A stretch of DNA of 64,000 nt from an uncultured delta proteobacterium (GTDB lineage: Bacteria; Desulfobacterota; WTBG01; JAGOGO01): the NCBI GenBank assembly GCA_963736755.1, contig CAVTQE010000023.1, positions 9,822-73,821 on the forward strand, given 5' to 3'. Every line of letters starts with the position of its first letter. The first letter of the stretch is position 1. The notes beneath the pieces are model-generated. The model did no database searches, was not told the origin of the DNA, and saw only the letters and a program-made list of their open reading frames with translations. This document shows, piece after piece, positions 33,925 to 51,359 of the stretch. The translations under genes and the position numbers were made by a program.

Positions 33925-33936
33925 CTGATGTTGCAT

Positions 33937-34012
33937 CGGGGCGTAGCGCAGCCTGGTTTAGCGCACCTGAATGGGGTTCAGGGGGTCGGAGGTTCAAATC
34001 CTCTCGCCCCGA
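33937..34012 (+). tRNA. tRNA-Pro (anticodon GGG)
   Basis: Hand-folded cloverleaf: acceptor CGGGGCG/CGCCCCG, D stem GCGC/GCGC, anticodon stem CCTGA/TCAGG with loop ATGGGGT, T arm GGAGG-TTCAAAT-CCTCT; 76 nt. Confidence 0.9.
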
Positions 34013-34160
34013 TTATTTTTTTGCTACCATAACAACACAGGGCATCTGCCCTTGTCTTACCCAATGCAACAAAAGTATCGTTTTGTTGCTGGCCTGACCG
34101 CCATAGAGTCGCAAACTCAGGTTAGAAAAATTTGTCCACCTGGGCAGATATAACTATTCC

Positions 34161-36578: not shown

Positions 36579-37790
36579 TTAGTCTAGAGAAAACGCTCCC
36601 GGTACTTCATCTAAAGATCTTCTTTCGTATTGCAAGACTTCTTGATCAAAACCCTTCGGAGCCCAAGCATAAAGATGCATTATGCCGGGAGTATGATAGC
36701 GTTTTTTGAGTTGTTCCATGTATTTTAAATGAATAGGGGCTTGATCGGCTAGAAAAAGTAGGCTGGACAACCCGCCTTTATCAAAAAAAATCAGATGCTG
36801 CTCCAGGAGCCCCTTCCCTATGGTTTTGTTTGGGTCGTGAATCCGTACCCCCAGTATTTTATATTGTTTCTTATTTGGCACCAGAGTTGATCCCCATAGG
36901 TTTTTGTATCTGATCAGTCCACCATCTAAGAAGGGCCGGGATTTTCCGAAATCTATACTTGAACACTTCTTTTCATACGCAATTAAAATACAATAGTAGT
37001 AAAGGGCGTCAAAAGCGCCTTCGTTCAGATACTCCAATTTCCCCTTTTCGACGCCCACGAGTTCGAAGACCAGTGTATTATTTCGCACTCTGCAAATGGC
37101 TGCCGCCATCCGCTGGTCTTCTTTTTGAACAACGACAAGAAAACCGGTTTCTATGAGCCGTTTGACTTTTTGATAACTGTCTATAATTGCACGTTCCCCA
37201 AACCTTTTGGTTATGTAAGGACGATACATTTCGAAATAAAAATGGTCTAAGGCCGCTCTATCAAATAAGACACTCCAAGTATACTTGAGATCACAGACTT
37301 TTTGAATTTTTCGGAGTGCATTCCCCCGGAATTGTTTTTTAATCCCTTGAAACACGTTTGAAAAATACAGAATTGATTTTACATGGTCTGGGGTATTAAG
37401 AAATCCTTTTAGCCCTGAAAGGCGATAAAAGACCAAATTAATATGAACGATCGTTAAATCTCGTGTTATCTTGGTCTGTTCCAAAAAGCGAAAGATCTGC
37501 CAGAAAAAAAGATGTCCGAGAGGTAATGACGATAATACCGTTGCACCGGAAAAATCCATGACAAACTCTTTTTGCCCCTTTTTTCCAATGTAGAGGATAA
37601 ATAAAGGTTCCTTAACCGGATTCAATTGGCAGTAAAAAATTAAAGCGTCGACCCGAATATCCAACAAAAATGAAATTATAGACTTTAACAGATAAATAAT
37701 AGGTTCCGTAAGAGTCAAAATTCGCCAGGGTAATCGGTCGTAAATTCCAAGGAGAAACTCTTTTAACCGTATAATGTGATTTGTTTGCAT
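36579..37790 (-). CDS. Hypothetical protein, possibly FemAB/CelD-like acyltransferase fold
   Basis: ORF 36579-38057 overlaps the upstream rSAM gene by 250 nt, so the start was moved to MQTNH (37790). The family assignment is only an impression. Confidence 0.3.
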   Translation of the reverse strand: MQTNHIIRLKEFLLGIYDRLPWRILTLTEPIIYLLKSIISFLLDIRVDALIFYCQLNPVKEPLFILYIGKKGQKEFVMDFSGATVLSSLPLGHLFFWQIFRFLEQTKITRDLTIVHINLVFYRLSGLKGFLNTPDHVKSILYFSNVFQGIKKQFRGNALRKIQKVCDLKYTWSVLFDRAALDHFYFEMYRPYITKRFGERAIIDSYQKVKRLIETGFLVVVQKEDQRMAAAICRVRNNTLVFELVGVEKGKLEYLNEGAFDALYYYCILIAYEKKCSSIDFGKSRPFLDGGLIRYKNLWGSTLVPNKKQYKILGVRIHDPNKTIGKGLLEQHLIFFDKGGLSSLLFLADQAPIHLKYMEQLKKRYHTPGIMHLYAWAPKGFDQEVLQYERRSLDEVPGAFSLD

Positions 37791-37806
37791 GCTTTCCAAG
37801 TTAACG

Positions 37807-38898
37807 TCATGAGCAGAAGCTTTTATAGCAGTACTGTGCGTTGAGCACTCGACAGCCCCAACACCCACCGCCGCAAGCACTAAGAAATTTACAGCTAAGG
37901 CAACCTTCAGGGTACCTCGGATGTCTGAATTCCTGAAATCCTTCTTCCCAAATGGATTTAAAGCGTTTTTCCCTGACATTACCTTGGGAGAACCGAATGT
38001 CTGAGGTGATATTGCAGGGCAAAACTTCACCGTCCGGGTTGATAGCACAGCATTCACGGCCTGCTCGGCAGAAAAAGGGTTCGGAGGTAACCTCTTGAAA
38101 ATGGTTTTTTAGATACCCCGTATGAGACATAAGTTCAACAGGGCAGTAGGCTCGCAGTTTTTTTACCATGTCAATGAGTTCCAAGATTTCAGCTTCTACA
38201 AAGTTATTTGCGGAAAGTTGACTCGCGCGTCCTATTGGAATGAGCATTCCCAGCACCCAGTTTGTCGCCGATGAGTTTACGACATGCTCTGCCAAGTCTT
38301 TTATGTGGGAGACATTGTTTGGGAAGACAGTTGTGTTTATTTCACGGACTTTGACGCCGATCTTTTTAAAAATTTCCAGGGCCTTTAATGAGCTGGCAAA
38401 GGCACCCGCTTTCCCTCTCACAGCGTCATTTCTTTCCCCGACGTCGTCAATGCTTGTAACCACCCGGTCGATTCTTAATTCAGACAGCTCTTTTTGGTAT
38501 TTTTCGACCAAATATCCATTGGTTGCCAACGTGATGCGTGGAATACCGACTTTATCGGCATAGCGTAAAATATCAAACACATCATCCCTGACAAGCGGTT
38601 CTCCGCCTGTAAAGATAAGATGCCGGACTCCTGTCTCCTTGATGTCATCAATGATTTTTAAAACCTCTGTATATGATAACTGGCGAACATCCCTTCTACA
38701 CGCATCCACCTGGCATTGTTTACAATTAAAGTTACAGTCAAAGGTCAATAAGAAATGCACATAGCGGGGTAATTTAACAAGTGGAAGTGCCTGCCCAATG
38801 CGGCAAATACGTAAGCGAATATCGGCATAGTGATCAAAATAGTACTGTTTTAGAGGAGGTGCCAATTTCAGAAAACGATCGACGAATGACAAAAACAT
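37807..38898 (-). CDS. Radical SAM protein with C-terminal SPASM-like Cys-rich domain
   Basis: CNFNCKQC (CxxxCxxC), GGEPL, C-terminal CRAGRECCAINPDG...CLSCKFLSACGGGCWGC. Confidence 0.85.
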   Translation of the reverse strand: MFLSFVDRFLKLAPPLKQYYFDHYADIRLRICRIGQALPLVKLPRYVHFLLTFDCNFNCKQCQVDACRRDVRQLSYTEVLKIIDDIKETGVRHLIFTGGEPLVRDDVFDILRYADKVGIPRITLATNGYLVEKYQKELSELRIDRVVTSIDDVGERNDAVRGKAGAFASSLKALEIFKKIGVKVREINTTVFPNNVSHIKDLAEHVVNSSATNWVLGMLIPIGRASQLSANNFVEAEILELIDMVKKLRAYCPVELMSHTGYLKNHFQEVTSEPFFCRAGRECCAINPDGEVLPCNITSDIRFSQGNVREKRFKSIWEEGFQEFRHPRYPEGCLSCKFLSACGGGCWGCRVLNAQYCYKSFCS

Positions 38899-41448: not shown

Positions 41449-41768
41449 TTAAAAATCAAATTCTAATTGTTTAGGTGTTTTCTCTTCATGTCGATGATAT
41501 TCTATATATTTCTTTATCGTCTCACTGGTTACTTTGTCCCCTACCGTCCTGACAAAATATCCATCTTCCCAGAATTCTCCTCCCCACAGCTCCTTCTTTA
41601 CCCTTGGATACCTCCAAAATTTCCTTCGCACTTACGCGCTCTTCAGCACCCTCACCGTTTCCCCTACAGAATATCTCGGCGGTATGCTCGCAAATATGTG
41701 CACGTGATCGCCCGCTATCTCCATTTCTATCACTTCACAGTCCCTTGCTGCCAATATCTCTTTAAACA
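41449..41768 (-). pseudogene. IS200/IS605-family (Y1, HUH) transposase TnpA remnant
   Basis: Own translation: ...EMEIAGDHVHIFASIPPRYSVGETVRVLKSA*VRRKFWRYPRVKKELWGGEFWEDGYFVRTVGDKVTSETIKKYIEYH... It has an HxH motif, an in-frame TAA, and the N-terminus is missing. Confidence 0.7.
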
Positions 41769-41774
41769 ACTATT

Positions 41775-42976
41775 GTGAACAAACACAGGAGGATGGTTAT
41801 GAAGATTGGAATAGGGTTTGTTTTCGTGGTTACATTTCTGTTTCTGGGTAGTGCTTTTGCTGCTGATCCTGTACCACCGCCGGTAGAGGAAAGCTGCGGG
41901 CCGAAATTCACCTTTGAGGCTGGGCCAATCGTGATGACTCGTCACCAGGACAACCAAGCTATTTTTTCAAGCCCGGGAAACCCAAGGAGCGGTGACCTTC
42001 TGAAAACTTCCATGATTGATGACGATTGGAGGGTCGGCGGTCAGGCACGGTTGACGGTTTCTTTCCCGTGTTTCTATCTGGATTTTGGCGGATTTTGGCT
42101 ACCATCCGGCTCCAACACAGAAAATAAACCTTTGCCGTTAGAAAGCAATACCATTGAAACGAGCCCCCCTACATTGTTTGATGGTCGAACTCAGATTCCA
42201 TGGTTGATGATGATTGGAGAGTCGGCGGTCAGGCACGTCTGACTGTTGCCTTCCCGTGTTTTTATCTTGATTTTGGCGGATTCTGGATACCATCCGGCTC
42301 CGACACGGTACATAAATTTGAGCCGGATGGCGAAAATACAATCGAAACGAGCCCTCCAACATTCTTTGGCGGCCCAACAGTCGGAGATGCTACGTTTAAA
42401 TATTCTTCGTCGATCTATAATTTGGATGGGAATATTGGGCACAGTTTTGCTCCCTGGTTATCGGCCTATGCCGGAGTCCGGTATTTGAGGTTAAAAGAAA
42501 AACTTGACATGTTTTCCCCCTTCGGCGGCTCTGATTATGAGGACGATAATTGGAAAGCAAAGAACTCAATGGTCGGCCCGCAGATCGGCGCACGGGCAGA
42601 CATTCTGAAGCTGATCGGCGTTTGCGAATCAAGTCCCTGGTCTTTAGATACCAACGTTGCTTTTGTGATCCTGCACAATCATGCGAAATCTGAATTTTCG
42701 CGAACTCCTGGCACTGCTACCTCTGGATCGGCATCATCAAACTTCTGGACCCCGGGCGTGGCTGCGGAGGCTGATCTGGGGTTTCGTTTGATGCGCAATC
42801 TTAAACTGGCGATCGGCTATCAGATGCTCTATCTCGACCGGGTTGCGCTCGCTACAAATCAGGTGGCAGGGACCGGGAACTTCAACGTGGTTGGCGGGGA
42901 AATCAATATGTCAGTAGAAAAAGACAGCGTTCTTTATCACGGCGGACTCGTAAGGTTTGTTATAGACCTGCCGTAG
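41775..42976 (+). CDS. Outer-membrane beta-barrel protein (BBP7-like impression) broken by an internal 188-bp tandem duplication
   Basis: Signal peptide KIGIGFVFVVTFLFLGSAFA. DDDWRVGGQARLTV(S/A)FPCFYLDFGGFW(L/I)PSGS occurs twice. C-terminal beta-strand pattern ends ...YHGGLVRFVIDLP. Confidence 0.6.
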
Positions 42977-43266: not shown

Positions 43267-43791
43267 TTAATTTGCAATAATTTTCCGTAACTGAACCGGG
43301 TCAAAGTGGGGGGGGAGAGGTGAGCGGAGGCCGAGACGCCGCAGGACACGTCCCGCTGCCCGGCGGGAGCAGTCATATGCCCCTATCAACCACAAGCCTG
43401 CTCGTGAGGCGTTCCACACGCGGGCCAGCAGGCCGCTGGTCCCGGTATCGAGAGGAACCACGCAATCGCCTCGGACGACACCCGTGACGCGCGCCACTAT
43501 GCTGTTGGGATTGAACGGCCCCTCCTCGTGCACGTTTGCGTCCCCCCGTGTGAAGAGGCCGTCAGCCGTTTTGCGGGTTACACGGTGGAGCAGGTATTGT
43601 CCCTCAGGGGTCTCCACCAGTGCCACCATCCCCAGGGTCAGCGTAGATGCTGTCACGGACGCCAGCTCGACGACGTCGCCCGACCGGATAAATGGGCGCA
43701 TACTCATACCCGTCACCGTCAGCCGCGCTCGCCCGCCCTGCTGCAGCGCATCGCGCACAAGCGGTACGACGTCAGCGCAGGGCGCTCTCAT
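43267..43791 (-). CDS. S26/S24-type signal-peptidase-like serine protease (candidate leader peptidase)
   Basis: VTGMSMRPFIRSGDVV...LLHRV...FTRGDAN. ATG 43791 overlaps the upstream stop (ATGA). Confidence 0.6.
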   Translation of the reverse strand: MRAPCADVVPLVRDALQQGGRARLTVTGMSMRPFIRSGDVVELASVTASTLTLGMVALVETPEGQYLLHRVTRKTADGLFTRGDANVHEEGPFNPNSIVARVTGVVRGDCVVPLDTGTSGLLARVWNASRAGLWLIGAYDCSRRAAGRVLRRLGLRSPLPPHFDPVQLRKIIAN

Positions 43792-44675
43792 AAGACAGAC
43801 CGCACGAGTGGGATCACTGCAGGTTCCGGACGGCATCGTAAGCGGTACACCGGAATTTGGGCCAGCAAACGGTCCAGCACGTCAAACGCCCGTGCCAGCA
43901 GTTCAGAATTCCAGTAAGGCAGAAAGGCGCGAGCGGCCAGCAGGGGCATGGATTCAGCAGGGGATAGCGGCACAAGTTCATTCTTGTGCGCCTTCTCGAG
44001 CAGCAGGATCGCCGACAGCGCTACCTGGTGGTTACGGGCGATGTGGGCGGTGCCCCCCCAGGGCGTTCCGTAAATGGTCACGCCGTCGGTGTTGAGCCGC
44101 ACGGCCACCCGGTCATCACTCAGGGCAACCACACCGTCCTCCTGCGCCCAGAGGAGCCCCTGGGTACTCTTCCCCGCGCCCGCCCGCCCTACCATGAGCA
44201 GGCCGCGACCGTTGTCGTCAAGGCCGCAGGCGTGGAACACAAGACCATCGTTGAAGATGATCCGTGTCCGGATCATCAGTTCACTCGGCCCGATGGGCAG
44301 GACCGTAGAAAATTGTTGGTTGCGCGCCGCCATCCGCTCCAAAAGCAAGGCCCGCTCCCACGTGTTGTTCACTTCTAACCGTGCCTTGGGGGGGCGGGTC
44401 TTCCAGCGCGATGTGTAATCAATGTCCACCAACGCCTCGTAGCCGTCACGCCCCTTAAACATCCGCCACACGTGCTTGGGATCATAGATCAGTTCGTTAG
44501 CGGGCAACGGGGAAAGATGCCTCACGCCTTCCCAGTGGATGACGATGTTCGATGCAGGGGCCGGGTGAGAAACCATAAAAGGGCTCAGCAGCCCTGGCAA
44601 GCCAATTTCCTCGAACGGTAGAGGGCATTCGACGGTTAAGGTCAGATCAGCAATGTGAAAATGGGCTTGATTCAC
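43788..44675 (-). CDS. HPr-kinase-related P-loop protein
   Basis: VFHACGLDDNGRGLLMVGRAGAGKST...LSDDRV resembles the HprK C-terminal domain. GTG 44675 overlaps the rSAM stop (GTGA). Confidence 0.65.
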   Translation of the reverse strand: MNQAHFHIADLTLTVECPLPFEEIGLPGLLSPFMVSHPAPASNIVIHWEGVRHLSPLPANELIYDPKHVWRMFKGRDGYEALVDIDYTSRWKTRPPKARLEVNNTWERALLLERMAARNQQFSTVLPIGPSELMIRTRIIFNDGLVFHACGLDDNGRGLLMVGRAGAGKSTQGLLWAQEDGVVALSDDRVAVRLNTDGVTIYGTPWGGTAHIARNHQVALSAILLLEKAHKNELVPLSPAESMPLLAARAFLPYWNSELLARAFDVLDRLLAQIPVYRLRCRPEPAVIPLVRSVL

Positions 44676-45733
44676 AGGCGGTTCATCTCCGCAACCCGTC
44701 TCCTCTCCCGGGCGATGCTGCACAGGTAAGGGACAGGCTCATCCGTGGAGCCAGCCTCCAGGTAAGAAGAGGCGGGACAGCGCGGACAATAGTTTTCATT
44801 GTCGCATACACTGCAGACTGGCGACGGTGGACAGTCGGCCACGATTTTGCGGGTCGCCTCCCAGGCAGCCGCAAAACCAGCCTCAAGCGGCCTTGCGCCC
44901 GGCATCGGGAAGTCCAGGCACGCGTTCATTTCACCGCCGGCAAAGATGACAAAGCTCGCTCGCCCCGCACTGCAATAGAACGCGCCGTGAGGAATATTTG
45001 CCGGCAGGGGCTCTTCCAGACGTGCCGTCACGCCCTCTTTCTGCTCCAGACGCACAACCTCCGCCGCCGATAGTCTGATGACCTCCGCCGTACCAGGCAA
45101 ACGGTCGCGGCGCGGCGTCAGCATCCAGGCTGCCTGGAAGGGCACTCCACGCGCGTGGGCCAGGTCCCGCATGGCAGGCAGTTCGTGCACGTTCAGCTGC
45201 GAGATCGTCGTCTTGATCAGGAGCGGCACTCTGCCTGTTTCTAACAGCGCGTCAATGCCTCGAAGGCACTGACGATAGCTGCCGGGCACATTGGTGACAC
45301 GCTCGTATACGGCCTCGGTGGCGCCATAGAGAGAAACCTCCAGACGGGAGGGCGGGGTGTTCGCCAGGCGATGGGCGATGGCGGGAGTGATCAGGGTTGC
45401 GTTGGTGAAGAGTGTGATGTTGAGCCCCCAGGTCGTGAGAGGCTCATAGATGTCAAAAAAATCGGTGCGGAGAAAAGGTTCACCTCCTGAAAGGCAGACA
45501 AAGAGCATTCCGGCGTCCGTCGCCTCCCGCGCCAGGGCTAGCCACTGCTGCGCCGATAACTCCCTGACACGAACGCCTTCGGCTCTGACGGGCCCGGCAA
45601 TGTAGCACATGAGGCAGCGAAGGTTGCAGCGGCTCGTCAGCTCGAACATGCCACTCAGCGGCTGCCCGGCAGTAATAGCCTTCTTAAAGAGAATGTCAAG
45701 CAATCCTCGATAGTCAGTGGGACTTTCGCTCAT
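44672..45733 (-). CDS. Radical SAM / SPASM-domain peptide-modifying enzyme candidate
   Basis: CNLRCLMCY (CxxxCxxC), SGGEPFL, C-terminal FYCSAGRASF...CPPSPVCSVCDNENYCPRCPASS. Confidence 0.85.
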   Translation of the reverse strand: MSESPTDYRGLLDILFKKAITAGQPLSGMFELTSRCNLRCLMCYIAGPVRAEGVRVRELSAQQWLALAREATDAGMLFVCLSGGEPFLRTDFFDIYEPLTTWGLNITLFTNATLITPAIAHRLANTPPSRLEVSLYGATEAVYERVTNVPGSYRQCLRGIDALLETGRVPLLIKTTISQLNVHELPAMRDLAHARGVPFQAAWMLTPRRDRLPGTAEVIRLSAAEVVRLEQKEGVTARLEEPLPANIPHGAFYCSAGRASFVIFAGGEMNACLDFPMPGARPLEAGFAAAWEATRKIVADCPPSPVCSVCDNENYCPRCPASSYLEAGSTDEPVPYLCSIARERRRVAEMNRL

Positions 45734-46005
45734 AACTCGATGAGCCCTGCGCGAAGCAGCTCGGCAAGGAATTCTTCGATATCTTTGCCGGCGGTAGCCT
45801 CATCGATATTGAACTCGATTGCCATTTCCTTTGTTAATGTTTCAGTAGATTGCGATTCATCGAGGTGGTCCCAGATCCAACGAGCGGATGGGTTGAGGGT
45901 GATCAGACAATTGAAATCAAAGACCATCTGGCCCGTCGGTACGATGACCGTCTGATCCGCGACTTCACGGAGGATGAGCCCTTCCTTCTTGCGCACTGTT
46001 TTCAA
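45730..46005 (-). CDS. PqqD-family protein (RiPP recognition element-like)
   Basis: 91 aa ORF; ...LILREVADQTVIV......LNPSARWIWDHLDESQSTETLTKEMAIEFNIDEATAGKDIEEFLAELLRAGLI. Its stop overlaps the rSAM start. Confidence 0.8.
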   Translation of the reverse strand: MKTVRKKEGLILREVADQTVIVPTGQMVFDFNCLITLNPSARWIWDHLDESQSTETLTKEMAIEFNIDEATAGKDIEEFLAELLRAGLIEL

Positions 46006-46134
46006 GAATCCTCAATTTAAGAGATGGACTACAAGGCGATTGACCGGACACCTTCACGGTATCTTGTGCATAAATATAAAGTCACCTCAGGCGAACTACA
46101 CGGCAGGACAATCTAAACTTTCTTCATTTTCACA

Positions 46135-46281
46135 TCAGCTTTGCCTCTTATGTGCCGCACAAGCCGACCCATGCTGGTACTTTAGACACTGCATAAGCCG
46201 CTCCTCGATTTGGAGCTTAGTAACAGTCACCTGAGGCTTCTCGTATTCTTTCTTCATGGGCGCCTCATGCTTTTTTTGCAT
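46135..46281 (-). CDS. Candidate 48-aa RiPP precursor peptide (below the ORF-track cutoff)
   Basis: Own translation: MQKKHEAPMKKEYEKPQVTVTKLQIEERLMQCLKYQHGSACAAHKRQS. GGAGG lies 10 nt upstream of ATG 46281, and the ORF ends 129 nt upstream of pqqD. Confidence 0.55.
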   Translation of the reverse strand: MQKKHEAPMKKEYEKPQVTVTKLQIEERLMQCLKYQHGSACAAHKRQS

Positions 46282-46462
46282 AAAAGCCTAACCTCCTTTC
46301 AGCCTCGCTTTTGTATTCGGTGTTTTATAGCGTAAAAAGAATTAATATAGGTTTTTAATTTTAAATCAATTTTAAAAATAAAGCTATTTTTTATGTTCGC
46401 TCAGGCAACAGTGTTGTCATGTATTGCTAACCCTATGAATTTAGACTTAATTTTTCCGTCTC

Positions 46463-47596
46463 TCACTGCTTCGCGAAACCCGTCCAGACCTTTACACGCC
46501 AGCAGATGAACCGAAGATAGTTGACCGGCAGCATTACGTCGCGGGAGGCAGGGTAAAGTTCTTTAATTTCTTGTGGTCGCGGGAAGAAGCTTTTAGTAAA
46601 GGAATAAAGAATCTTTGACCATGTATCAAGAACAAATCTTGCCATAAGGATATCCCCGGCATGGAATAATGTAACGTCCTTTCTGATATTCATTCTGAAG
46701 AATCTTAGAAGAAAGGGCGCGATATTGGCAGGCGCATGTGTGAGCTGCTCTTGGAGAATTCTAAAAGATTTAAGCGGACCATCTTTCAGACGCCATAAAG
46801 AATCCAACTGGGCAAGGATAATCCGGGCGGATTTAATAAGTCCAACTTTTTTGAGCCTGCCGGCAAATTCCTCCCAGTCAATTATTCCGTCATATTTATA
46901 TAAGCCCCAGTGGATGTCCACCAGTATTTTGAATTCCCTGAAGTCATGCCTGAAATGATGGATAAACAACATCATCATGGTCATCTCCGGGGAAAGAACA
47001 TACGCGCCTGAATTGTTTCTCTTCACGCTCTTCCATATATCATCAGAATTCATATCAAAAAGAAATGGAACGCCAAAATCCCAATGGACCTCAACCAGAA
47101 AAGGGTGCCTTGAGTGTTGGTACTGGGCATGGTGTAACCGGCCTATCCAGAAAAGCAACGGCAATGAATCTGTGCGTAGATAACCATTCCCAATAAAAAT
47201 GGTATCCGCGTTGACGATATCCGCCCTTTTTATCAGGATATCTATGTCCGACGAGCTTCTGCAGTTGGGATCGCCATAGAGTGTCCGCGCGATCTCATTG
47301 CCTTTGATGACGCAGGCGGGGATGCCCCGCTTTCCAAGCAAGGCCACAACGTCTTTTTCTATTGCCTCCTGACACACTGAAATGTTGACGTTTTTCAGGA
47401 AACGGTTTTCATTCTGTTTAAGATAGTCATCGATATAATTGTTTGATCCGGAATAGTGTTTTTTTAGCTGGGAATAAAGGAGCATCTCCAAGCCGTGCTG
47501 CTGTGCCAGGGTTACACAGGTGGAAAGCTCGGCACTGTTTAAAGAGATGGTGGATGGGGGCAGGGGGGATAGTATGTCCGTTAATGGAGATTTCAC
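46463..47596 (-). CDS. Uncharacterised nucleotidyltransferase family protein (NTP_transf_5-like)
   Basis: ...IPACVIKGNEIARTLYGDPNCRSSSDIDILIKRADI...FLVEVHWDF... pattern; upstream of and co-oriented with the RiPP-like operon. Confidence 0.65.
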   Translation of the reverse strand: MKSPLTDILSPLPPSTISLNSAELSTCVTLAQQHGLEMLLYSQLKKHYSGSNNYIDDYLKQNENRFLKNVNISVCQEAIEKDVVALLGKRGIPACVIKGNEIARTLYGDPNCRSSSDIDILIKRADIVNADTIFIGNGYLRTDSLPLLFWIGRLHHAQYQHSRHPFLVEVHWDFGVPFLFDMNSDDIWKSVKRNNSGAYVLSPEMTMMMLFIHHFRHDFREFKILVDIHWGLYKYDGIIDWEEFAGRLKKVGLIKSARIILAQLDSLWRLKDGPLKSFRILQEQLTHAPANIAPFLLRFFRMNIRKDVTLFHAGDILMARFVLDTWSKILYSFTKSFFPRPQEIKELYPASRDVMLPVNYLRFICWRVKVWTGFAKQ

Positions 47597-47814: not shown

Positions 47815-48190
47815 GTGCAAACTGAAATTGTTTCTGACTGGGCTCGAAAGACCTTGCACGCCATTATCCGCGGTAAAGTGGAGCCTGAAAGCATTATTCA
47901 CTCCGATACCCGGCGCGGTTACAGTAAATTGGTTGACTTGGGATACAAAAAACATTACCGTGTCCGCCATGGCAATGACCAGTCTGCCAATGGTAAGCGG
48001 CATATTAACGGCATCGAGTCTTTTTGGTCTTATTCAAAACGCAACCACATGAAATTACATTGAAAACAATGATCAATCTTTTATCTTCACCTCAAAGACT
48101 GGGAGTTCGGACGCAATTAGGGAAACCAAAATATTTACCAAGTACTTCTAAAAAACCTGAGGGAAAAAGCCATCAATGAGTCAAGACATT
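47815..48190 (+). pseudogene. 3' remnant of an IS1595-family (ISXO2-like) transposase
   Basis: ...IIHSDTRRGYSKLVDLGYKKHYRVRHGNDQSANGKRHINGIESFWSYSKR...; continues with stops and frameshifts as ...HLKDWEFGRN...YQVLLKNL. Confidence 0.7.
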
Positions 48191-50392: not shown

Positions 50393-51359
50393 ATGAGGTT
50401 AAAAAGAATCATTATCACCCGGTCGTGCTTCCTTCTGCTTTTTTTGGCTCTGCTTCTCCTTCAGGCCTGTTCCTATCCAACCACACCCCGGATCAAAAAA
50501 ACAGCACCAGCACCTGAAGGGCCATCAGCCAGCACTCCTCCGGAACAAAGCATTGGGAAAATTTTTCAAAAAAACGCTCCGGTACTTGTTTCCCAGCCGG
50601 AACGCAAAGAAAAAGAATATGAAATCGGTCCGGAAGATAGGCTGGAGATTAGGGTATGGGACCAGGAAGATCTCACGCGGGAAGTGTACGTGTCCCGGGA
50701 AGGAGTTTTTTCCTATCCTCTTATCGGCACGGTTCAGGCAGGTGGCCTCAGCGTGGAACAGCTCGAAAAAGAAATTGCTGACCGGCTCTCCAGAAAATAC
50801 ATCGTCAATCCCCAGGTTACGGTTACGGTAAAAGAGTTTAAGAGCAAAAAAGTCCTGGTGCTCGGCGAAGTCGGAGTCCCCGGAACTATATCCGTTAACC
50901 GGGAAGACCACCCTTTTGGAAATACTCACGAAAACCGGTGGCCCAACCACAAATGCCGGGATTGAGATAACCGTCATGCGGCCCCGGAAGACCCCCAACG
51001 CTCCTGGCTCTCAGGAAAGGTCAGCGAACAATGAGGTGATAAAAATAAATTTAAAAAGGCTTTTAGAAGGCGATACCTCCCAAAATATTTATCTCGAGCC
51101 GAACGATACGGTGTATTTTTCTAAAACTGGATTTTATTACGTGTACGGCGAGGTAAAATCTCCCGGGAGATACAACCTGGAAATGGGCACCACTGTACTG
51201 AAGGCGATCACCACTGCCGGCGGAGTAACGGAAAAGGCAGCAGTCAACCGGACCAAGGTAGTGCGGGAAAAAGCAGGACAAAAATCAGAGATGCGCGTCA
51301 AACTGACTGACCCGGTTGAACCAGAAGATATTATCGTGGTTCCGGAAAGCTTTTTCTGA
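50393..51359 (+). CDS. Polysaccharide export outer-membrane lipoprotein (Wza family), one frame break near 50905
   Basis: Lipobox LLLQAC, YEIGPEDRLEIRVW...PLIGTVQAGGLSVEQLEKEIADRL..., then YPLTGKTTLLEILTKTGG... (SLBB) in the second frame. Confidence 0.85.

Follow-up and report, generated by a model that had tools for sequence, protein, structure and literature searches.

Peptides made on the ribosome and modified after translation (RiPPs) that depend on a RiPP recognition element (RRE) and a radical S-adenosylmethionine (rSAM) enzyme are known as a kind, and their general logic is familiar to RiPP specialists. Phosphorylated RiPPs have been described among the lasso peptides paeninodin and pseudomycoidin. 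There, PadeK and PsmK, kinases of the HprK family, phosphorylate the C-terminal Ser of the peptide, and a DD-to-AA mutant is inactive. The phosphate then receives one or two hexoses from PsmN, described as an "uncharacterized NTP transferase", whose DxD-to-AxA mutant is also inactive (PMC6993621). Three other systems have been defined computationally by Haft. SynChlorMet (TIGR04249, TIGR04248, TIGR04250, TIGR04251; PF27840) is an uncharacterised cassette of ScmC, ScmD, ScmE and ScmF. HPr-rel-A (TIGR04352-04355) combines PqqD-family proteins with HprK-related kinases, and GeoRSP (TIGR04302-04303) combines a PqqD-family protein with an rSAM/SPASM enzyme; both are known by computation only.

We analysed a 64,000-nt stretch of DNA (the window) from an uncultured delta proteobacterium (contig CAVTQE010000023.1, positions 9,822 to 73,821). 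It contains a cassette of six co-directional minus-strand genes encoding, in order, an NTP_transf_5 nucleotidyltransferase-fold protein, a small precursor peptide, a PqqD-family protein, an rSAM/SPASM enzyme, an HPr-kinase-fold protein and a Sec11-like peptidase. We consider it likely that this is a functional RiPP cassette whose product is a cysteine-crosslinked peptide with a C-terminal phospho-Ser, perhaps decorated further.

Like SynChlorMet, the cassette pairs a PqqD homologue and an rSAM/SPASM enzyme with a protein of the HprK-like ScmC type. The two also resemble each other in taxonomic spread (Syntrophobacteraceae, Chlorobium and methanogens). The cassette differs in encoding one rSAM where SynChlorMet has two (ScmE and ScmF), and it adds the Sec11-like peptidase, the NTP_transf_5 protein and an identifiable precursor family. 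No precursor is known to have been identified previously for SynChlorMet. The window proteins miss the SynChlorMet cutoffs by a wide margin (ScmC, 21.9 vs 125 bits; ScmD, 20.2 vs 100; ScmE, 98.9 vs 400; ScmF, 80.9 vs 400). TIGR04249 reached a best E-value of 7e-8 on 42 kinase-like members of the window family, and its cutoff is missed as well by the members from Chlorobium and from the related loci L081 and L039 (below 1e-10). Matches to the other two systems are weak (HprK_rel_B, 32 vs 200; HprK_rel_A, 21 vs 200; GeoRSP PqqD, 22 vs 100; GeoRSP rSAM, 54.5 vs 400). Membership in SynChlorMet, HPr-rel-A or GeoRSP was rejected on these far-sub-cutoff scores, which extend to the Chlorobium and Syntrophobacteraceae members. 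Among catalogued entities these three systems are the nearest, and the window family is a sister to them, not a member of any.

With the lasso systems the cassette shares an HPrK-fold kinase with a DD motif, an NTP transferase, a core ending in Ser, a YxxP-type leader and a PqqD-type RRE. Neither the six genes nor the recurrent synteny includes a lasso cyclase (Asn-synthetase-like) or a B1/B2 protease; unlike in lasso peptide clusters, the class-defining enzyme is the rSAM/SPASM protein. An earlier annotation made from the letters alone (the sequence-only reading) had known of no characterised product for this gene combination, and none was found here, but the combination is not wholly uncatalogued: the PF27840 ScmC, SynChlorMet, HprK-related and GeoRSP models all describe relatives. 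No description of the cassette was found in the searchable full-text literature; subscription-only papers lay outside that search, so prior publication is possible. In the same literature, HPr kinases in RiPPs appear only in lasso-peptide papers.

Precursor Family and Cassette Layout

The precursor open reading frame (ORF), 48 aa long, was read from its translation at 46135-46281 (minus strand) together with a Shine-Dalgarno sequence, GGAGG (46292-46296, minus strand), 10 nt upstream of the ATG. Its leader (residues 1-31, MQKKHEAPMKKEYEKPQVTVTKLQIEERLMQ; 46189-46281, minus strand) carries Y13, P16 and the E27-R28-L motif. Its core (residues 32-48, CLKYQHGSACAAHKRQS; 46135-46188 with the stop codon, minus strand) carries C32, C41 and Ser48. 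The boundary at C32 is provisional. Leader cleavage would fall before or after Cys32, and only about 60% of the precursors have a small residue ahead of C32.

Just upstream of PqqD, the three nearest rSAM relatives (90%, 73% and 60% identity) each have a called gene of 46-55 aa, and every one of these small genes encodes two Cys, a terminal Ser and the leader KYEKPKVTVxxLxIEERLM. When the loci were searched iteratively with the six window proteins, 56 of 84 proved to have a homologous small ORF, including 39 of the 40 orthologous loci (those with an rSAM at least 44% identical). The family shares the signature YxxP-x10-ERLxxC-xn-C, after which comes a hypervariable core. Y13 and P16 do not vary across 43 aligned precursors, and conservation reaches at least 90% at each of E27, R28, C32 and C41. 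A precursor profile run against 5.8 billion proteins retrieved 72 peptides with E-values down to 1e-13, all of them unnamed or annotated as hypothetical. The small ORF matched no NCBIfam or Pfam precursor family. Because the profile E-values reach 1e-13 and synteny holds in 56/84 loci, the small ORF stands above chance. Its conservation marks it as a real precursor with leader/core architecture, and it very probably encodes a RiPP precursor that undergoes RRE-dependent rSAM modification.

Among close relatives the leaders are near-identical and the cores differ, taking the form C-x-K-x5-7-C-x5-8-S with Ser always last. In a comparison with the related locus L001, some 50 nt of the window's core-coding DNA fail to align, and the flanks are 87-92% identical. 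The sequence-only reading had singled out a YEKP leader motif, two core Cys and a C-terminal Ser. YEKP turns out to be one instance of the family-invariant YxxP, both Cys belong to the conserved set above, and the conserved Ser varies together with the presence of the kinase-like gene. The small ORF is likewise conserved, with the same architecture, in homologous clusters.

Some loci carry variations on the precursor gene. Two or three tandem precursor genes with a shared leader and differing cores are present in L034 (5705-6531), L037 (5845-6516) and L035 (6264-6608). Tandem precursors with a shared leader and varied cores are typical of RiPP diversification. In Chlorobium the precursors (L021, 12631-12855; L033, 12704-12907) lie at the cassette's far end, following an ABC transporter and the nucleotidyltransferase. 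Their cores are extremely Arg-rich (e.g. RRRMRRNMMRGRRRRPNVVPVGKMS) and have only one Cys, with Ser still last.

Gene calls and motifs were read on the minus strand between 43000 and 48200. Overlaps of 4 nt join the last four genes and are located exactly where the sequence-only reading had put them: ATGA at 45733-45730 (PqqD stop and rSAM start), GTGA at 44675-44672 (rSAM stop and kinase-like start) and ATGA at 43791-43788 (kinase-like stop and peptidase start), all on the minus strand. Because of the GTGA overlap, the kinase-like protein is taken to start at GTG 44675 (295 aa) and not as the 311-aa mechanical ORF; the peptidase is 174 aa from ATG 43791, not 189. The gene calls of relatives have identical 4-nt overlaps and lengths (295 aa; 157-163 aa). 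The PqqD gene (45730-46005, minus strand) starts at TTG 46005 or at GTG 45996 and encodes 88-91 aa. The GTG start yields the 88-aa protein that is called in L001. The gap between precursor and PqqD is accordingly 129 nt (TTG) or 138 nt (GTG). The earlier translation of the 48-aa ORF and its GGAGG were correct, and the 129-nt gap stated with them applies to a PqqD start at TTG 46005. No structured RNA or leaky terminator was found in the 129-nt gap (fold z-score 0.29, no Rfam match), and scans for consensus promoters and terminators gave chance-level matches only. Plus-strand ORFs of 129-203 aa within 43484-44378 were dismissed as shadow ORFs of the GC-rich minus-strand genes.

At least 576 loci, spread over more than 10 phyla, were confirmed when GTDB species representatives were scanned with the rSAM profile, and 80 of them were fetched; the synteny counts rest on the 84 loci examined. 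Species with related versions number in the hundreds among bacteria and include some archaea; metagenomic rSAM homologues include Methanoregulaceae. The rSAM gene is accompanied by PqqD in 75 loci, a ScmC-like gene in 58, the precursor in 56, an S26-like peptidase in 48 and the nucleotidyltransferase in 33, and all six genes occur together in 23. The neighbourhood recognised by the sequence-only reading thus recurs in other genomes. The order precursor-PqqD-rSAM-kinase-peptidase(-ABC)-nucleotidyltransferase is found in, among others, Chthonomonadales, Competibacter, Bryobacterales, WOR-3, Chlorobium, Acidobacteriota and Planctomycetota. In a variant from Firmicutes the precursor lies between the rSAM and kinase-like genes. 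An ABC transporter directly follows the peptidase in 28 of 54 long loci; no ABC exporter is present in the window or in its closest relatives. An anti-phage or phage origin was rejected, as PADLOC gave generic rSAM-viperin similarity only and PHROGs gave nothing.

Radical SAM Enzyme and Leader Recognition

The rSAM/SPASM enzyme (353 aa; 44672-45733, minus strand) matches Pfam PF04055. The CxxxCxxC motif is formed by C36, C40 and C43, and the SPASM region has seven Cys (C254, C272, C307, C310, C316, C319 and C338). All ten residues are invariant or near-invariant in the family alignment. Searched against the Protein Data Bank (PDB), the rSAM profile matched SkfB (5e-25), PqqE (9e-19) and CteB (5e-6), as well as BlsE, SuiB and MoaA. 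SkfB is a peptide thioether (sactionine) synthase. The sequence-only reading had taken the rSAM for a peptide maturase, in keeping with SkfB as its nearest solved relative; by that measure the enzyme does not fall among non-peptide maturases. No NCBIfam model cutoff is reached by the window rSAM.

Maturases of sacti- and ranthipeptides (SkfB, AlbA, CteB, PapB, StsB) share with the window the rSAM CxxxCxxC motif, the auxiliary-cluster Cys and an RRE-dependent, Cys-containing precursor. The cassette differs in encoding its RRE separately, as a PqqD protein and not as an N-terminal fusion, and its precursor belongs to a new family. On the StsB model the window rSAM reaches 73.9 against a cutoff of 625, and family members are sub-cutoff on PapB, AlbA and SkfB. 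From its motifs and relatives, the rSAM is probably the core-modifying enzyme, acting on the two conserved Cys. We see an even chance that its chemistry is thioether formation.

The PqqD protein matches Pfam PF05402 (E=4e-16, 59.6 bits), with weak, sub-cutoff matches to the lasso, PQQ, GeoRSP, HPr-rel-A and SynChlorMet PqqD models. Its gene adjoins the rSAM gene in 75/84 loci, and the two are fused in some homologues. We propose that PqqD is the leader-binding RRE partner of the rSAM. A second PqqD-family gene lies upstream of the precursor, adjoining the nucleotidyltransferase gene, in several related loci: L085 (6016-6252), L002 (1-180), L031 (5702-6061), L042 (5828-6169) and L011 (923-1276). 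This second protein could be a separate RRE serving the kinase and nucleotidyltransferase tailoring. No such gene is present in the window.

Kinase-Fold Protein and the Terminal Ser

The ScmC-family HPr-kinase/PEPCK-fold protein (295 aa; 43788-44675, minus strand) was assigned from its motifs, its fold and the PF27840 matches of its relatives. The motifs are H148, a P-loop GRAGAGKST (K169) and D187-D188-R189, which align to the catalytic His, P-loop and DD motif of Lactobacillus casei HPrK/P. In an alignment of 42 members, H148, the P-loop residues G163...G168-K169-S170-T171 and D188-R189 are invariant, and D187 is at least 90% conserved. Among the homologues in the list of matches, all 120 carry PF27840 ScmC, including those 89-92% identical to the window protein, and all are annotated as hypothetical. 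The window protein itself had no match in the Pfam scan, whose model set possibly predates PF27840; Hpr_kinase_C was not matched either, and the protein sits in the ScmC branch.

The AlphaFold2 model is of high confidence (predicted local distance difference test score 91.4). Foldseek matched it to ATP-PEPCK (E=7e-7) and to HPrK/P (1knx, 1kkl and 1jb1; E 2e-5 to 1e-3), all with probability 1.0 and with modest TM-scores of 0.3-0.5. According to the model, the protein has an HPrK/PEPCK fold. The fold and the catalytic motifs agree with the HPr-kinase-like assignment of the sequence-only reading.

The terminal Ser tracks this gene. Of 38 precursors from loci with the kinase-like gene, 31 end in Ser, against 4 of 15 from loci without it (Fisher p=3e-4, uncorrected for phylogeny), the kinase-absent set being limited to loci with adequate flanking sequence. 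In the orthologous set, 21 of the 22 precursors encoded beside a kinase-like gene end in Ser. On a rough neighbour-joining tree of the rSAM we counted about five losses of the kinase-like gene, in four of which the C-terminal Ser was also lost; the cores there have endings such as GPNR, GLTE and AAYQ. Several loci with neither kinase nor Ser still have the peptidase, which is therefore not tied to the Ser. The co-variation supports phosphorylation of the C-terminal Ser, and on balance we think it probable that the kinase-like protein acts on this residue of the precursor.

Peptidase and Nucleotidyltransferase

The peptidase (174 aa; 43267-43791, minus strand) was placed in the S24/S26 clan as a Sec11-like serine peptidase from its motifs and PDB profile matches. 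The motifs G-x-S30-M-x-P-F, H69-R and G-D84 are invariant in 23 sequences. The best PDB matches of the profile are human SEC11C (2.6e-4) and SEC11A. Pfam Peptidase_S24 is matched by 19 of the 23 family members, and the window protein scores 37.3 bits against the 51.85 cutoff of the NCBIfam archaeal signal peptidase I model (TIGR02228). Its motifs point to a Ser/His enzyme of the S26B-like, archaeal/ER Sec11 type. The S26-type assignment of the sequence-only reading stands, with an intact Ser/His/Asp site, but the type needs correction: the enzyme resembles Sec11 (Ser/His), not the bacterial Ser/Lys peptidases.

Sec11/SPC18 (S26B, TIGR02228) has the same SM-x-P, HR and GD catalytic motifs. The window peptidase differs in being encoded in a RiPP operon and in having no N-terminal anchor. 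Ahead of Ser30, no hydrophobic stretch is present in its first 27 residues (MRAPCADVVPLVRDALQQGGRARLTVT). Because a membrane anchor is missing, the peptidase is probably cytoplasmic, and its substrate is presumably a leader peptide and not a secretion signal. Removal of the precursor leader is its somewhat favoured role. We know of no Sec11-type Ser/His peptidase that serves as a RiPP leader peptidase.

The nucleotidyltransferase-fold protein (377 aa; 46463-47596, minus strand) matches PF14907 (E=6e-39, 134.5 bits vs a 31.2 cutoff, model positions 3-244 of 249). It carries an SSDIDIL motif at the position corresponding to the DxD of PsmN. A sequence search for solved relatives found none. As a cassette partner, which the sequence-only reading had made of it, the protein is recurrent: 30 of the 33 loci that encode it also have the kinase-like gene. 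In the related locus L004 it is fused to or adjoins the peptidase. By analogy with PsmN, it may decorate the phospho-Ser as a second tailoring enzyme, a suggestion that we make tentatively.

Proposed Pathway

The gene content, motifs, folds, synteny, precursor family and Ser/kinase co-variation described above are observations, and the following pathway is proposed from them. The PqqD-type RRE would bind the precursor through its YxxP...ERL leader and present it to the rSAM/SPASM enzyme, which would act on the core at the two conserved Cys or between them. The likeliest chemistry would be a Cys-to-carbon thioether crosslink of the sacti- or ranthipeptide type. The ScmC-family HPr-kinase-fold protein would use ATP to phosphorylate the side chain of Ser48, and the NTP_transf_5 protein would then add a further group, for instance a hexose or a nucleotide, to the Ser48 phosphate, as PsmN does with hexose. 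The cytoplasmic Sec11-like Ser/His peptidase would remove the leader. Such a pathway would combine a sacti- or ranthipeptide route with the PadeK/PsmK-PsmN tailoring of lasso peptides. To our knowledge, tailoring by phosphorylation or phospho-glycosylation has so far been seen only in lasso peptides.

Genomic Context

The rSAM, kinase-like and peptidase genes have 60-64% GC, with about 70% at third codon positions. The window as a whole has 45% GC, and the nucleotidyltransferase, precursor and PqqD genes have 45-50%. An assembly chimera was ruled out as the cause of this GC step: the step is not an artefact, because the independent metagenomic contigs L001 and L086 (92-93% nucleotide identity) share the pattern. 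It suggests a mosaic, or a recently transferred enzyme block joined to a lower-GC part with the precursor and nucleotidyltransferase genes.

The island lies between two transposase fragments. At one boundary is an IS1595-family fragment (47815-48063, plus strand; partial match to PF12762 DDE_Tnp_IS1595, E=1.7e-13), and at the other an IS200-like (Y1) remnant (41449-41769, minus strand; PF01797). The remnant has a single in-frame stop that divides it into two contiguous same-frame ORFs of 45 and 60 aa, both matching PF01797. The only tRNA gene of the window, tRNA-Pro(GGG) at 33936-34013 (plus strand), is about 9 kb from the island and does not adjoin the IS fragments; we found no evidence that it is an integration site.

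All six ORFs are intact. The ratio of nonsynonymous to synonymous substitution rates (dN/dS) for all cassette enzymes is between 0.10 and 0.56 (0.23-0.56 vs the relatives with 92-93% nucleotide identity, 0.10-0.19 vs L002). These values indicate purifying selection and, with the intact ORFs, argue that the cassette is functional, and they counter a decaying pseudogene cassette, which was rejected.

The cassette is embedded in a PEP-CTERM/XrtA-like exopolysaccharide (EPS) locus with genes for a GT4 glycosyltransferase, a FemAB-like protein, an epimerase, an EpsL-like outer-membrane protein (OMP), Poly_export/SLBB, a Wzc-like kinase and an O-antigen-ligase-like protein. The related locus L085 is flanked by WecG and GT4 glycosyltransferases. 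A general link to EPS loci was rejected, since it is true of the window and L085 and not of other loci.

Several features of the neighbouring genes were recorded. A second, unrelated rSAM/SPASM gene (37807-38898, minus strand; PF04055 and PF13186) lies in the EPS locus; its best NCBIfam matches are NirJ2, AhbD and TIGR04133, all sub-cutoff. It overlaps a mechanical ORF at 36579-38057 (minus strand), which is FemAB-like with a weak pepcterm_femAB match. The polysaccharide export gene appears split, with Poly_export and SLBB in overlapping plus-strand ORFs of different frames (50393-50965 and 50916-51359), a layout that points to a frameshift, due either to a pseudogene or to an error in sequencing. 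Immediately beside the cassette, an OMP-like gene contains a 188-nt tandem duplication of 80-85% identity (42008-42190 and 42196-42378, plus strand) and is now read as two ORFs that overlap (41775-42242 and 42200-42976; weak match to BBP7).

Weighing the Interpretation

The features noted by the sequence-only reading were confirmed, and its interpretation is supported in each of its elements. Several points weigh against a cysteine-crosslinked, C-terminally phosphorylated product. Every chemical step, the order of the steps and the cleavage site are inferred. The top NCBIfam matches of the rSAM include the non-peptide enzymes AhbD and NirJ; these cover the core domain only and are far under cutoff. 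By sequence, ScmC is linked to HPr kinase weakly (profile E=0.009), and the likeness to PadeK, PsmK and PsmN is drawn from their published description, not from a direct link. The association of Ser with the kinase-like gene was not formally corrected for phylogeny, the tree being a rough neighbour-joining one. One kinase-less clade (L027/L055) keeps the Ser, and also the nucleotidyltransferase. Seven of the 38 precursors in ScmC-positive loci have no terminal Ser; the majority of the seven are candidates from Firmicutes whose detection is weak and which may be mis-called. Finally, the window cassette has no dedicated exporter or immunity gene.

Three other explanations were weighed. The locus might be a RiPP pathway in which the kinase-fold protein makes no stable C-terminal phospho-Ser. 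The Ser might be eliminated to dehydroalanine and attacked by Cys, giving a lanthionine-like ring by the logic of class III/IV lanthipeptides; another residue might be the target; or the protein might serve the peptidase or the rSAM as an ATP-dependent scaffold. A conserved kinase fold and P-loop, Cys and Ser as conserved core residues, and the ScmC-positive precursors that do not end in Ser would all fit. We nevertheless think this unlikely, as the cassette encodes no lyase or cyclase domain, the co-varying Ser is specifically the last residue, matching PadeK and PsmK (PMC6993621), and a nucleotidyltransferase partner of the PsmN kind implies a phosphate acceptor that persists.

That the peptide is an intracellular cofactor precursor, or a peptide or protein primer linked to the EPS locus (a phospho-glycosylated peptide with a part in EPS assembly, for example), and not a secreted product would agree with the position inside that locus, the WecG and GT4 flanks of L085, the missing exporter and the hexose that PsmN-type enzymes add to phospho-Ser (PMC6993621). 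Elsewhere, however, polysaccharide genes are not general flanks and about half of the long loci have an adjacent ABC exporter; the IS-fragment borders and the GC-atypical rSAM, kinase-like and peptidase genes suggest insertion into the EPS locus, and hypervariable cores are typical of antagonistic or signalling peptides, not of cofactors. This role is distinctly unlikely. A horizontally acquired remnant, silent or incomplete in the window genome, is a very improbable reading. The GC contrast of its enzyme genes, the flanking IS200 and IS1595 fragments, the missing exporter that many relatives have, and the damaged neighbours (the split polysaccharide export gene and the duplicated OMP-like gene) are in its favour, but all six reading frames are unbroken and keep their coupled overlaps, the dN/dS values above speak against decay, and the exporter-less layout and GC pattern recur in L001 and L086 with diversified cores. 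A functional cassette for a cysteine-crosslinked, phospho-Ser peptide is thus the reading that we prefer.

Conclusion

The cassette family apparently has no characterised member and no curated precursor model, although at least 576 species-level genomes from more than 10 phyla have it. It may represent a new, broad RiPP class of bacteria and methanogenic archaea, in which an rSAM-crosslinked peptide (thioether or other) has its phospho-Ser extended to a phosphodiester-linked sugar or nucleotide and its leader removed by a soluble Sec11-type peptidase. We offer this wider reading with clear reservation and hold it to be somewhat doubtful. It would place an unprecedented tailoring and processing set on an RRE-dependent rSAM RiPP. 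The comparative data give testable predictions: the YxxP-x10-ERLxxC-xn-C...S signature, the last Ser as the kinase site, the nucleotidyltransferase as a second-step enzyme and a candidate type of leader peptidase. If the interpretation is true, functions would be assigned to the Pfam ScmC and NTP_transf_5 families and a new genome-mining rule would follow, and a precursor family would be supplied for relatives of the SynChlorMet cassette. C-terminal phospho-tailoring would then be a portable module between RiPP classes, moved from a lasso to an rSAM scaffold.

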